A DNA stretch of 64,000 nt from Escherichia phage slur07: sequence record NC_028780.1; one strand, written 5' to 3'. Position numbers and translations under genes: made by a program. The stretch's first letter is position 1. Each line of letters opens with the position of its first letter. Shown piece after piece: positions 5,407-26,285 of this stretch. Under the pieces are notes generated by a model. The model did not search any database. It was not told where the DNA came from and saw only the letters and a list, made by a program, of their open reading frames with translations.

Positions 5407-5732
5407 TGACAGACACACAGCTTTTCGAATATCTTTATTTTTCGCCAAAAACTATTAAAAATAAATTGGTGAATCATTTTGAAATTTTGGCAAATAATAA
5501 CGTCTTGAGCGAATTTTATCCTAAGCAATACAAATTACAAAAAGGCGTATTCAAAGGATGCAGAGTTTTGTGCACTGCTCCTAATGCAAGATTAATGAAT
5601 AAAATTCCATATTTTACCATGGAATTTATTGATGGACCTTTTAAAGGACTAATCACCCAAAGTTTAATGGCATATGATTCTGAGCCATTTTTAATTAAAG
5701 AACAATCTTGGATAAATTTATTTTCTAATTGA
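5403..5732 (+). CDS. hypothetical protein
   Basis: 109-aa ORF, ATGA overlap with upstream gene. Confidence 0.5.
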   Translation: MMTDTQLFEYLYFSPKTIKNKLVNHFEILANNNVLSEFYPKQYKLQKGVFKGCRVLCTAPNARLMNKIPYFTMEFIDGPFKGLITQSLMAYDSEPFLIKEQSWINLFSN

Positions 5733-5738
5733 GGTTAT

Positions 5739-6101
5739 ATGAAAGCATATCAAATTCTTGAAGGCACACATAAAGGTACTATTTATTTTGAAGATGGTAT
5801 TCAAGCACGAATTATTGTTTCTAAAACCTTTAAAGAGGACTCTTTTGTAGACCCAGAAATTTTCTACGGTTTGCATGCCCGTGAAATTGAAATTGAGCCA
5901 CAACCTACAGTTAAAATTGAAGGTGGTCAACACCTGAACGTTAACGTTTTGCGTCGTGAAACTCTGGAAGATGCAGTTAAGCATCCGGAAAAATATCCGC
6001 AGCTGACCATCCGTGTATCCGGTTATGCAGTTCGCTTTAACTCTCTGACTCCGGAACAGCAGCGCGACGTTATCGCTCGTACCTTCACCGAGAGTTTGTA
6101 A
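5739..6101 (+). CDS. autonomous glycyl-radical cofactor (GrcA/YfiD-like; T4 Y06I-type)
   Basis: C-terminal 60 aa [60 protein letters not shown] matches E. coli GrcA as recalled; includes glycyl-radical motif RVSGY. Confidence 0.85.
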
Positions 6102-6322
6102 TGGCAAAGATAATTATTGAAGGTTCTAAAGATGTGCTAAATGCTTTCGCCGAGTGGTTTAGTAATTCAGGCGAACAGCAATTTAATGAAGCGTGGACCA
6201 TGGGTGATATTGATGGAATTTATCCTACGACAGAAATTTCTGTTCAAGGATATGGCATTCATGAACCCATTCGTTTAGTTGAATATGATTTATGTACTGG
6301 TGAGGAAGTCAAATATGATTGA
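6101..6322 (+). CDS. hypothetical small protein
   Basis: 73-aa ORF, TAATG overlap. Confidence 0.5.
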   Translation: MAKIIIEGSKDVLNAFAEWFSNSGEQQFNEAWTMGDIDGIYPTTEISVQGYGIHEPIRLVEYDLCTGEEVKYD

Positions 6323-15848: not shown

Positions 15849-15946
15849 TTCATAAGAGGCCTTCTATGACAAAAAGGCAGTTCAGAAATAGATTATATGG
15901 ACTGCCATCAAAAAGATGACTAGAATTAAACTGGTAAATGGAGGTA

Positions 15947-16252
15947 ATGATGTTATACTCAAAGGCTCGTGAAATTTATGAAACTAAAATTAAAGAAGCA
16001 GTATTTCAGTTCGCAACAACGATGCGATGGACAAATGATTGGGAGTATTCAAAAAATCATAAGAAGTCCTTGGTGACAAGAAAGGCTCATATGTTAGTGT
16101 TAATAGACCGTGAGCAGATTAAAGCCCGAGAAGCCCTCCAGAATCATAAAAAGGCTGCCTTTGAATGGTTTATGGATAACACTGCTCCTGAGACTAAGAA
16201 AGCAGTGAGCGCGTGGTTCAGTGGAAAAAATTGTGAAAGAAGTTTCTTTTAG
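15947..16252 (+). CDS. hypothetical protein
   Basis: about 100 aa; GGAGG RBS; start could be ATG 15950. Confidence 0.5.
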   Translation: MMLYSKAREIYETKIKEAVFQFATTMRWTNDWEYSKNHKKSLVTRKAHMLVLIDREQIKAREALQNHKKAAFEWFMDNTAPETKKAVSAWFSGKNCERSFF

Positions 16253-23530: not shown

Positions 23531-24004
23531 ATGTTATTGACTGGCAAATTATACAAAGAAGAAAAACAGAAATTTTATGATGCACAAAACGGTAAATGCT
23601 TAATTTGCCAACGAGAACTAAATCCTGATGTTCAAGCTAATCATCTTGATCATGACCATGAATTAAATGGACCAAAAGCAGGAAAGGTACGTGGATTGCT
23701 TTGTAATCTCTGCAATGCCGCAGAAGGTCAAATGAAACATAAATTTAATCGCTCTGGTTTAAAGGGACAAGGCGTTGATTATCTTGAATGGTTAGAAAAT
23801 TTACTTACTTATTTAAAATCCGATTACACCCAAAATAATATTCACCCTAACTTTGTTGGAGATAAATCAAAGGAATTTTCTCGTTTAGGAAAAGAGGAAA
23901 TGATGGCCGAGATGCTTCAAAGAGGATTTGAATATAATGAATCTGACACCAAAACACAGTTAATAGCTTCATTTAAGAAGCAGCTTAGAAAGAGTTTAAA
24001 ATGA
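23531..24004 (+). CDS. 49: recombination endonuclease VII (Holliday junction resolvase)
   Basis: 157 aa, zinc-binding CLIC...CNLC, histidine motif DHDHE; matches T4 gp49. Confidence 0.9.
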   Translation: MLLTGKLYKEEKQKFYDAQNGKCLICQRELNPDVQANHLDHDHELNGPKAGKVRGLLCNLCNAAEGQMKHKFNRSGLKGQGVDYLEWLENLLTYLKSDYTQNNIHPNFVGDKSKEFSRLGKEEMMAEMLQRGFEYNESDTKTQLIASFKKQLRKSLK

Positions 24005-25818
24005 CAATTGAAAAAGAAATTGAAGGATTGATTCATAAAACTAATAAAGACCTTTTAAACGAGAATGCTAATAAAGATTCTCGTGTTTTTCCAACTCAAC
24101 GGGACCTTATGGCTGGTATTGTGTCTAAACACATTGCCAAAAATATGGTCCCGTCTTTTATTATGAAAGCGCATGAAAGCGGAATTATCCATTTCCACGA
24201 TATTGATTATTCCCCTGCTCTTCCATTTACTAATTGCTGTTTAGTAGATTTAAAAGGAATGCTTGAAAACGGATTTAAGCTAGGTAATGCACAGATTGAA
24301 ACTCCTAAATCAATTGGCGTTGCTACTGCAATTATGGCACAAATTACTGCACAGGTTGCTTCTCACCAATACGGCGGAACGACTTTTGCGAATGTAGATA
24401 AAGTACTTTCTCCTTATGTTAAACGCACCTATGCAAAACATATTGAGGATGCAGAAAAATGGCAAATCGCCGATGCGTTGAATTATGCTCAATCTAAAAC
24501 AGAAAAAGACGTATACGATGCATTCCAAGCTTATGAATATGAAGTAAATACTCTCTTTAGTTCAAACGGACAGACTCCTTTTGTAACAATTACATTTGGT
24601 ACGGGAACTGACTGGACTGAACGAATGATTCAGAAAGCAATTCTGAAAAATCGTATTAAAGGTCTTGGTCGTGATGGGATAACTCCTATTTTCCCTAAGC
24701 TTGTTATGTTCGTTGAAGAAGGTGTTAATCTTTATAAAGACGATCCGAACTATGATATTAAGCAGCTTGCTCTAGAGTGCGCAAGCAAAAGGATGTATCC
24801 TGATATTATTTCAGCTAAGAACAATAAAGCTATCACTGGTTCATCTGTTCCTGTTTCTCCAATGGGTTGCCGTAGTTTCTTGAGCGTATGGAAAGATTCG
24901 ACTGGTAATGAAATTCTTGATGGACGTAATAATCTTGGTGTTGTAACATTGAATCTTCCTCGCATCGCGTTAGATTCTTATATTGGAACACAGTTCAATG
25001 AACAGAAATTTGTTGAATTGTTCAATGAACGAATGGATTTGTGTTTTGAAGCTTTGATGTGTAGAATTAGTTCCTTAAAAGGAGTTAAAGCGACTGTTGC
25101 TCCTATTCTTTACCAAGAAGGTGCATTCGGGGTTCGTCTTAAACCTGATGACGACATAATTGAGTTATTTAAAAACGGTAGAAGTTCAGTGTCTTTAGGA
25201 TACATTGGTATTCACGAATTGAATATTCTTGTCGGTCGTGATATTGGACGAGAAATTTTAACTAAAATGAATGCTCATCTTAAACAGTGGACTGAAAGAA
25301 CCGGATTTGCTTTTAGTTTATATTCGACTCCTGCTGAAAACCTTTGTTATCGCTTCTGTAAACTCGATACAGAAAAATATGGAAGCGTAAAAGATGTTAC
25401 CGATAAAGGTTGGTACACTAACAGTTTCCATGTTTCAGTAGAAGAAAATATTACTCCGTTTGAAAAGATTTCCCGTGAAGCGCCATATCATTTCATTGCG
25501 ACAGGTGGTCACATTTCTTATGTTGAACTTCCTGATATGAAAAATAACTTAAAAGGTCTTGAGGCCGTGTGGGATTATGCTGCACAACATTTAGATTATT
25601 TTGGTGTTAATATGCCAGTAGATAAATGTTTTACATGCGGAAGTACCCATGAAATGACTCCTACTGAAAACGGATTTGTTTGTTCTATTTGTGGAGAAAC
25701 TGATCCTAAAAAGATGAATACCATAAGAAGAACATGTGGTTATTTGGGAAATCCGAACGAACGCGGATTTAATCTCGGTAAAAATAAAGAAATCATGCAT
25801 AGGGTTAAACACCAATGA
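24001..25818 (+). CDS. nrdD: anaerobic ribonucleoside-triphosphate reductase, uninterrupted
   Basis: 605 aa; C-terminal zinc ribbon CFTCGS...CSICG and glycyl-radical region RTCGYLG. Confidence 0.95.
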   Translation: MTIEKEIEGLIHKTNKDLLNENANKDSRVFPTQRDLMAGIVSKHIAKNMVPSFIMKAHESGIIHFHDIDYSPALPFTNCCLVDLKGMLENGFKLGNAQIETPKSIGVATAIMAQITAQVASHQYGGTTFANVDKVLSPYVKRTYAKHIEDAEKWQIADALNYAQSKTEKDVYDAFQAYEYEVNTLFSSNGQTPFVTITFGTGTDWTERMIQKAILKNRIKGLGRDGITPIFPKLVMFVEEGVNLYKDDPNYDIKQLALECASKRMYPDIISAKNNKAITGSSVPVSPMGCRSFLSVWKDSTGNEILDGRNNLGVVTLNLPRIALDSYIGTQFNEQKFVELFNERMDLCFEALMCRISSLKGVKATVAPILYQEGAFGVRLKPDDDIIELFKNGRSSVSLGYIGIHELNILVGRDIGREILTKMNAHLKQWTERTGFAFSLYSTPAENLCYRFCKLDTEKYGSVKDVTDKGWYTNSFHVSVEENITPFEKISREAPYHFIATGGHISYVELPDMKNNLKGLEAVWDYAAQHLDYFGVNMPVDKCFTCGSTHEMTPTENGFVCSICGETDPKKMNTIRRTCGYLGNPNERGFNLGKNKEIMHRVKHQ

Positions 25819-26285
25819 ATTATGATAGATTTTATCCTTGCGATTTTGTTAATGGCCCTGGTTGCAGGGTTGTTCTTTTCGTTACAGGTTGTTTGCATAA
25901 ATGCGAAGGGTGTTATAATAAATCAACATGGAATGCTAGAAATGGTATTCCATTTACTGGTGAAACACTAGAACAATTGATTGAATGTTTGAATAATGAT
26001 TATATAGAAGGATTAACTATAACCGGAGGTGACCCTCTTTATCCTGATAACAGAGACGTGATTCACTCTGTGGTTCAAACAGTAAAAAATCTTTATCCCA
26101 ATAAAAGCATTTGGTTGTGGACAGGATATAAGTTTGAAGATATTAAACAACTAGAAATGCTTAAATATGTTGATGTTATTATTGATGGGAAGTATGAGAA
26201 AAATCTTCCGACTAAAAAGCTGTGGCGAGGATCAGATAATCAGCGACTTTGGTCAAATACCGATGGGGTGTGGAAACATGATTAA
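25815..26285 (+). CDS. nrdG: anaerobic RNR activating enzyme (radical SAM)
   Basis: CLHKCEGC radical-SAM CxxxCxxC motif; 156 aa. Confidence 0.9.
   Translation: MNYDRFYPCDFVNGPGCRVVLFVTGCLHKCEGCYNKSTWNARNGIPFTGETLEQLIECLNNDYIEGLTITGGDPLYPDNRDVIHSVVQTVKNLYPNKSIWLWTGYKFEDIKQLEMLKYVDVIIDGKYEKNLPTKKLWRGSDNQRLWSNTDGVWKHD

Follow-up and report, generated by a model that had tools for sequence, protein, structure and literature searches.

The closest described relatives of the gene analysed here are the glycyl-radical spare-part proteins, of which Escherichia coli YfiD (GrcA) and bacteriophage T4 Y06I are the only two that have been validated experimentally (PMC8683613). According to the summary of Wagner et al. 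(2001) given in PMC8683613, T4 Y06I reconstitutes oxygen-cleaved pyruvate formate-lyase (PFL) with PFL-AE in vitro. In YfiD, the disordered residues 1–60 assist both in the binding of cleaved PFL and in activation; residues 61–127 adopt the fold of PFL residues 693–759 and carry the radical, the site of which in PFL is G734 (PMC8683613). A further described system is formed by the cyanophage auxiliary metabolic genes psbA and psbD, in which host–phage intragenic recombination has been reported (Sullivan et al., 2006; PMC1484495). Like the gene described here, these are phage copies of a damage-prone host protein, with patchy G+C content inside the gene and exchange of segments between host and phage.

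The window (the whole stretch of DNA analysed, 64 000 nucleotides of Escherichia phage slur07) contains an ATG to TAA open reading frame of 120 amino acids plus stop, which was assigned to gene vs.6 of the T2/T4-like Tequatrovirus phages (Y06I in T4). Compared with vs.6 of hundreds of Tequatroviruses, among them T2, RB32 and KAW1E185, its identity is 98.9–99.4%, and it lies in the T-even gene order vs.8–vs.7–vs.6–vs.5–vs.4–vs.3–regB–vs.1–vs–tk.4...tk. The T4 gene occupies the same locus (vs.8–vs.7–vs.6–vs.5), and its product (NP_049730) differs from the window protein at a single residue (Arg73 in the window, His73 in T4). The RefSeq product name for both T2 and T4 Vs.6 is 'autonomous glycyl radical cofactor GrcA'. 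Both gene and biochemical role have been established before, so that the annotation as such is ordinary. The coordinates of its features are given in Table 1.

Table 1. Features of the vs.6 locus (positions in the window).
Feature	Position	Strand	Basis
GAGG Shine–Dalgarno/ribosome-binding site, 4 nt before the ATG	5731..5734	+	Read from the sequence
vs.6 (Y06I-type) coding sequence, phage autonomous glycyl radical cofactor (GrcA homologue)	5739..6101	+	Open reading frame, Tequatrovirus identity and family matches
N-terminal half, codons 1–59, of phage-type composition, diverged	5739..5915	+	GC3 0.19; 49% DNA identity to grcA
Host-derived tract (169 nt) encoding the structured glycyl-radical domain	5917..6085	+	168/169 identical to E. 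coli grcA
Gly95 GGT codon in the RVSGYAV motif, predicted glycyl-radical site	6021..6023	+	Alignments to GrcA and PFL 697–759
3' tail with phage-lineage alleles, last five codons	6086..6098	+	Five synonymous differences from E. coli grcA

The GAGG motif overlaps the TGA stop codon (5730–5732) of vs.7, the gene just upstream, and the stop codon of vs.6 overlaps the ATG of the following gene. Consensus matches to a promoter or terminator belonging to vs.6 itself were no commoner near the gene than in shuffled sequence. Since no promoter-like site rose above chance there, vs.6 is probably co-transcribed with vs.8 and vs.7. A reverse-strand open reading frame of 129 amino acids (5718–6107, minus strand) spans all of vs.6; it was rejected as a mechanical frame opposite a conserved gene, with no support as a gene.

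The product was assigned to phrog_1209. Pfam Gly_radical (PF01228) matched residues 61–101 (2.8e-18), and comparison with the NMR structure of GrcA (PDB 6OWR) and with PFL residues 697–759 (PDB 1h16) gave E values of 8.6e-42 and 5e-26, respectively. The best NCBIfam match was GrcA (TIGR04365) at 153.3 bits, which is below the equivalog cutoff of 170 because the N-terminal half has diverged. Three other hallmarks of the GrcA/YfiD family (TIGR04365, IPR011140) were found: a small stand-alone protein of 120 residues with its own ribosome-binding site and stop codon, a C-terminal glycyl-radical domain that carries the RVSGYAV glycine and is homologous to PFL 693–759, and an N-terminal half homologous to that of GrcA (hhalign). 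Gly95 aligns with GrcA Gly102 and PflB Gly734. E. coli GrcA/YfiD (PDB 6OWR; TIGR04365) is likewise a stand-alone protein of ~14 kDa with a disordered N-terminal half followed by a structured glycyl-radical domain; the phage protein is seven residues shorter, and its N-terminal half is only ~28–37% identical. Vs.6 is expressed from a phage operon, whereas E. coli GrcA is expressed from the host's own grcA control region.

Several phage records label this product pyruvate formate-lyase. The label was rejected, as Vs.6 matches only positions 680–744 of TIGR01255 (the last ~65) with 88.9 bits against a cutoff of 994; a full pyruvate formate-lyase is an enzyme of ~760 residues with a catalytic barrel and the Cys418/Cys419 pair, which Vs.6 lacks.

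The spare-part function proposed in the preliminary description agrees with what PMC8683613 relates of T4 Y06I from Wagner et al. (2001). The N-terminal half of Vs.6 would correspond to the disordered half of GrcA that helps to bind cleaved PFL. The C-terminal structured domain would present the RVSGYAV glycine, on which the host pyruvate formate-lyase activase would install the radical, and the domain would then substitute for the C-terminal piece of PFL cut off by oxygen. Fermentative production of acetyl-CoA and formate could thereby be kept running in infected cells. Host gene expression is shut down during infection, and this may be why the phage supplies the protein itself. That the phage benefits from this is our inference; no in vivo benefit of vs.6 was documented in the literature consulted.

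The preliminary description also drew attention to nrdD and nrdG, which do lie in the window at 24001–25818 and 25815–26285. On this basis Vs.6 might instead serve the phage anaerobic ribonucleotide reductase, either as a spare part for cleaved NrdD or as a protein activated by NrdG, and not host PFL. A role in nucleotide metabolism was guessed in an earlier paper (PMC1524935), and a homologue adjoins nrdG in the Aeromonas phages PX29 (GU396103, 26347–26721) and phiWae14 (LC778249, 135795–136169). However, no similarity between Vs.6 and the C-terminus of NrdD could be detected (E 2.7), so that the link to these genes is circumstantial only; the match of Vs.6 is to PFL, the reconstitution summarized in PMC8683613 was of cleaved PFL with PFL-AE, and the tracking of host grcA described below fits a host partner. 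We regard a role with NrdD or NrdG as unlikely and retain host PFL as the probable partner. In the window, vs.6 and nrdG are 18 kb apart, unlike the arrangement in the T4-like phages PX29 and phiWae14, where the adjacency possibly points to a connection with the activase of the phage.

The preliminary description had noted a match between the C-terminal 60 residues and E. coli GrcA. This match proved to be complete, with residues 61–120 of Vs.6 identical to GrcA residues 68–127 at 60 of 60 positions. The matching DNA tract begins at GrcA residue 68 and covers the structured domain including Gly95; it consists of two identical runs (5917–5948, 32 nt, and 5950–6085, 136 nt) separated by a lone synonymous mismatch at 5949. 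Where the two proteins share a residue, the same codon is used at 54 of 60 positions in the C-terminal block versus seven of 14 in the N-terminal half. A blastn search matched grcA in every one of 5,426 complete E. coli genomes (96.8% over 185 nt). When the whole window was compared in three pieces with 5,426 E. coli genomes by megablast, matches were obtained only at 5917–6105, to grcA and weakly to pflB. The latter was rejected as donor of the tract, its identity being 80.6% compared with 96–99% for grcA.

The composition of the gene changes along its length. GC3 is 0.19 in codons 1–59 and 0.46 in codons 60–120, the mean for the 66 genes of the window being 0.238, and the value for codons 60–115 is reached by only 0.4% of all 56-codon segments in window genes. 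The GC3 of the tract is of host type, at 0.43–0.47 versus 0.19–0.27 upstream. CTG, CCG, CAG, AAC, ATC and ACC are strongly enriched in the C-terminal half of vs.6: CTG accounts for four of six Leu codons (7% across the 66 window genes), CCG for three of three Pro codons (15% in the window), CAG for three of four Gln codons (35% in the window), AAC for three of three Asn codons and ATC for two of three Ile codons. Of the codons previously singled out as atypical, CTG, CCG and CAG were borne out, whereas CGT is ordinary for this phage (50% of Arg codons in the window). The highest GC3 values of any 56-codon segments in the window (up to 0.48) occur in a different place, a 104-residue open reading frame at 15938–16252 (plus strand) that belongs to phrog_1931, of unknown function, and has no NCBIfam match and no E. 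coli DNA match.

The base-level comparison took in about 15 phage genes. The host-like part does not run to the end of the gene: the last five codons are TTC ACC GAG AGT TTG in the window versus TTT ACT GAA AGC CTG in E. coli grcA, the clustering of these differences has a permutation p of 0.00085, and the tail alleles are common to the window and distant T4-like phages. Because a diverged N-terminal half lies upstream and the last five codons keep phage alleles, the host-like part is read as an internal gene-conversion patch in an ancestral phage gene. The number of phage-type bases kept in the tail varies (two in T4, two in AdolfPortmann, four in T2 and five in the window), a pattern to be expected from conversion tracts with different 3' endpoints in ancestral phage sequence. 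The 3' mosaic of T4 vs.6 combines its two phage-type bases with one nonsynonymous change, whereas the window combines five tail differences with the one at 5949. In all lineages the 5' edge of the tract coincides with the point where the conserved block begins, and it is indistinguishable from an original acquisition junction. As in psbA, the tract is internal, has host composition and is nearly identical to the host gene, with its breakpoints inside the gene. An apparent extension of the identity by 7–10 nt past the stop codon in Mosigvirus was dismissed as the TAATGG stop/start overlap plus a gap and not noncoding homology.

Shigella phage JK45 (Tequatrovirus jaykay, 601–963) carries an E. 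coli-type block with nine scattered synonymous differences and a GC3 of 0.38. It looks like an older tract drifting to phage composition, and tract ages would therefore differ among lineages.

Taken together, it is very probable that vs.6 encodes the T-even GrcA/YfiD-type spare part and is an old gene in which the stretch for the structured domain was recently overwritten by host grcA. The age of the gene was judged from its N-terminal half and from its distribution. The N-terminal half retains 14 of 38 identical residues relative to E. coli GrcA. When the N-terminal halves alone were compared by hhalign, nine from phages against eleven from bacterial GrcA proteins, they aligned end to end over 60 columns (94.9% probability, E 4.2e-8), which identifies the vs.6 N-terminal half as an old, diverged but true GrcA homologue. 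Homologues were found in 1,587 phage records, ranging over Tequatrovirus, Mosigvirus, Jiaodavirus, Karamvirus, Pseudotevenvirus, Krischvirus, Aeromonas T4-like phages, T5-like Demerecviridae and jumbo phages. Most of their blocks are 70–84% identical to any sampled grcA and have no GC3 step; the values for the T5-like, Aeromonas and RB49 homologues are 72–80%, with no GC3 jump.

This evidence weighs against a domain fusion, in which an unrelated phage N-terminal peptide was joined once to a captured 3' fragment of grcA and 5916/5917 is the illegitimate junction. The 5' edge is indeed sharp and identical in all of the lineages examined, and there is little upstream DNA homology to anchor a crossover. 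Against this, the phage and bacterial N-terminal halves are homologous end to end, the same two-part architecture occurs in lineages without a host-like tract, and repeated identical fusions would be required to put tracts of E. coli type and of Klebsiella type in one and the same place. Fusion is very unlikely; with homologous N-terminal halves and homologues in so many phage records, the gene is better described as old.

Even less credible is a recent pickup of the whole gene from an enterobacterial host. Host-like codons and near-identity to grcA in the C-terminal half would be accounted for, but not the low DNA identity and GC3 of the N-terminal half, the synonymous differences from the host in the last five codons or the full-length homologues in Aeromonas Straboviridae, Demerecviridae and jumbo phages. 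The recent acquisition from the host suggested in the preliminary description consequently holds for the DNA of the 3' half and not for the gene as a whole, in view of the old N-terminal half, the phage alleles of the tail and the wide distribution. We thus treat vs.6 as an old resident of T4-like and T5-like phages that appears to have received a patch of host DNA, and not as a recent whole-gene acquisition.

The protein block is extremely conserved, so a single ancient acquisition followed by vertical descent was also considered, with the DNA identity held by selection on the protein, on codon usage or on an RNA element. In a scan of grcA in 80 other species, which did not include K. pneumoniae, orthologues encoding the same 60–61 residues were only 84–91% identical over the tract. 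Phage homologues in which all 60 residues are identical (Enterobacter phage PF-CE2 and the records L110–L112) share only 149–151 of 180 nt (83–84%) with E. coli. These phages provide a natural control in which protein constraint acts but recent transfer is absent, and they show that selection on the protein does not hold the synonymous sites; their blocks may be old, decayed conversions. Similarly, E. coli and Salmonella grcA differ synonymously at 24 of 60 codons in this block, which indicates that there is no constraint at the nucleotide level. The identity of 168 of 169 nt in the window is therefore not explained by protein constraint, given that bacterial orthologues and phage homologues encoding identical residues reach only 83–91%, and the nucleotide comparison with host grcA upholds this part of the preliminary description. 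Over the 180-nt block, the window matches E. coli at 174 positions and the best non-Escherichia genus sampled at no more than 162, and because of this difference the donor of the tract is assigned to Escherichia specifically.

The tract type was then found to follow the host lineage. In Mosigvirus RB69 and RPN187 the block is of E. coli type (175–178/180), with an N-terminal half ~10–11% diverged from that of the window; the 200-nt flanks differ by ~20–30% in ungapped comparison with offsets unchecked. Ungapped flank comparisons with T2 and T4 are offset by a 1-nt spacing difference and were set aside. In the Klebsiella Jiaodavirus JD18, the block shares 95.4% identity with the grcA of K. pneumoniae versus 87% with that of E. 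coli, and 106 phage records are 95–99% identical to the K. pneumoniae block. The K. pneumoniae reference was taken from a chromosome filed as 'plasmid' in PLSDB. The grcA genes of E. coli and K. pneumoniae can be told apart at 22 sites; of these, 21 have the E. coli state in the window and RB69, and the K. pneumoniae state is present at 17 in JD18 and 15 in PKO111. JD18 also has the Klebsiella-specific residues LLDAVEH and its own phage-type tail. Several other phage lineages show no recent host tract. The K. aerogenes copy of grcA was left out of the comparison as it is frameshifted; in K. aerogenes NCTC10006 (LR134122.1, 300–684), a chromosome fragment filed as a plasmid, the frameshift follows residue ~92 and is probably a sequencing error or a pseudogene.

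No single transfer predating the split of Escherichia and Klebsiella can give this host-specific pattern, so that at least two host-to-phage events, one of E. coli type and one of K. pneumoniae type, hit the same segment. Descent from one ancient acquisition is accordingly scarcely credible. The differing 3' mosaics suggest more than two events. The Tequatrovirus and Mosigvirus tracts may represent one event spread by phage–phage recombination rather than two host events.

Salmonella phage PSE-D1 (ON550260.1, 59561–59733), for which Salmonella is the recorded host, carries a K. pneumoniae-type tract with 97.1% identity, which may record a former or alternative host. The block of IMGVR_UViG_2706794630_000006, a 19-kb contig, matches Yersinia artesiana grcA at 164 of 180 positions (next best 158); the contig either adds a third case of host specificity or is a piece of bacterial DNA classified as viral.

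The opposite direction, with the 3' half of E. coli grcA obtained from T-even phages, is the least plausible of the alternatives: identity alone is symmetric and nothing specific favours it, while the tract has host composition and is a GC3 outlier in the phage, is present in all of the E. coli genomes searched, and belongs to a gene that diverges evenly in both halves from Escherichia sp., Citrobacter, Salmonella and Klebsiella. As the composition of the tract is foreign to the phage, and as the divergence of grcA among bacteria is even along the gene and tracks taxonomy, the direction of transfer is taken to be host to phage.

In the proposed mechanism, the ~170-bp stretch for the structured domain in E. 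coli-infecting Tequatrovirus and Mosigvirus would have been overwritten recently by host grcA through homologous recombination (gene conversion) of the phage DNA with fragments of the host chromosome. Pairing would be confined to the only block that is still similar enough (~75–85%) in unconverted phage genes, and the conversion would be carried out by the T-even phage recombination machinery. In Klebsiella phages the same event would have taken place independently, the donor there being the grcA of K. pneumoniae. Host matching may be favoured, since docking into host PFL and recognition by the host activase are both required of the domain. We consider it moderately probable that Vs.6 undergoes concerted evolution with the current host's grcA in its glycyl-radical domain, strictly lytic T-even phages repeatedly overwriting ~170 bp with host DNA.

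Unlike cyanophage psbA and psbD, vs.6 has a far younger patch (zero or one mismatch in 169 nt), which in every case lies over the same domain and follows the genus of the host, and it resides in strictly lytic coliphages that degrade host DNA. No account of a host-identical, host-tracking vs.6 tract was found in a literature search that took in few subscription journals and not the T4 genome review of 2003; the patch is possibly undescribed, and no priority is claimed.

Among phages that destroy the DNA of their host, the locus is an exceptionally clear example of gene conversion from host to phage, and one that can be dated, with the conversion confined to the domain that must fit the host enzyme and its activase. 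If concerted evolution with host grcA is true, the tract would serve as a module that adapts quickly to match the host, and at the same time would preserve a molecular record of the hosts infected recently. If such patches are general, they could reveal the recent hosts of T4-like phages, as for a 'Salmonella' phage with a Klebsiella-type tract, and the natural rate of host–phage recombination could be measured from them.
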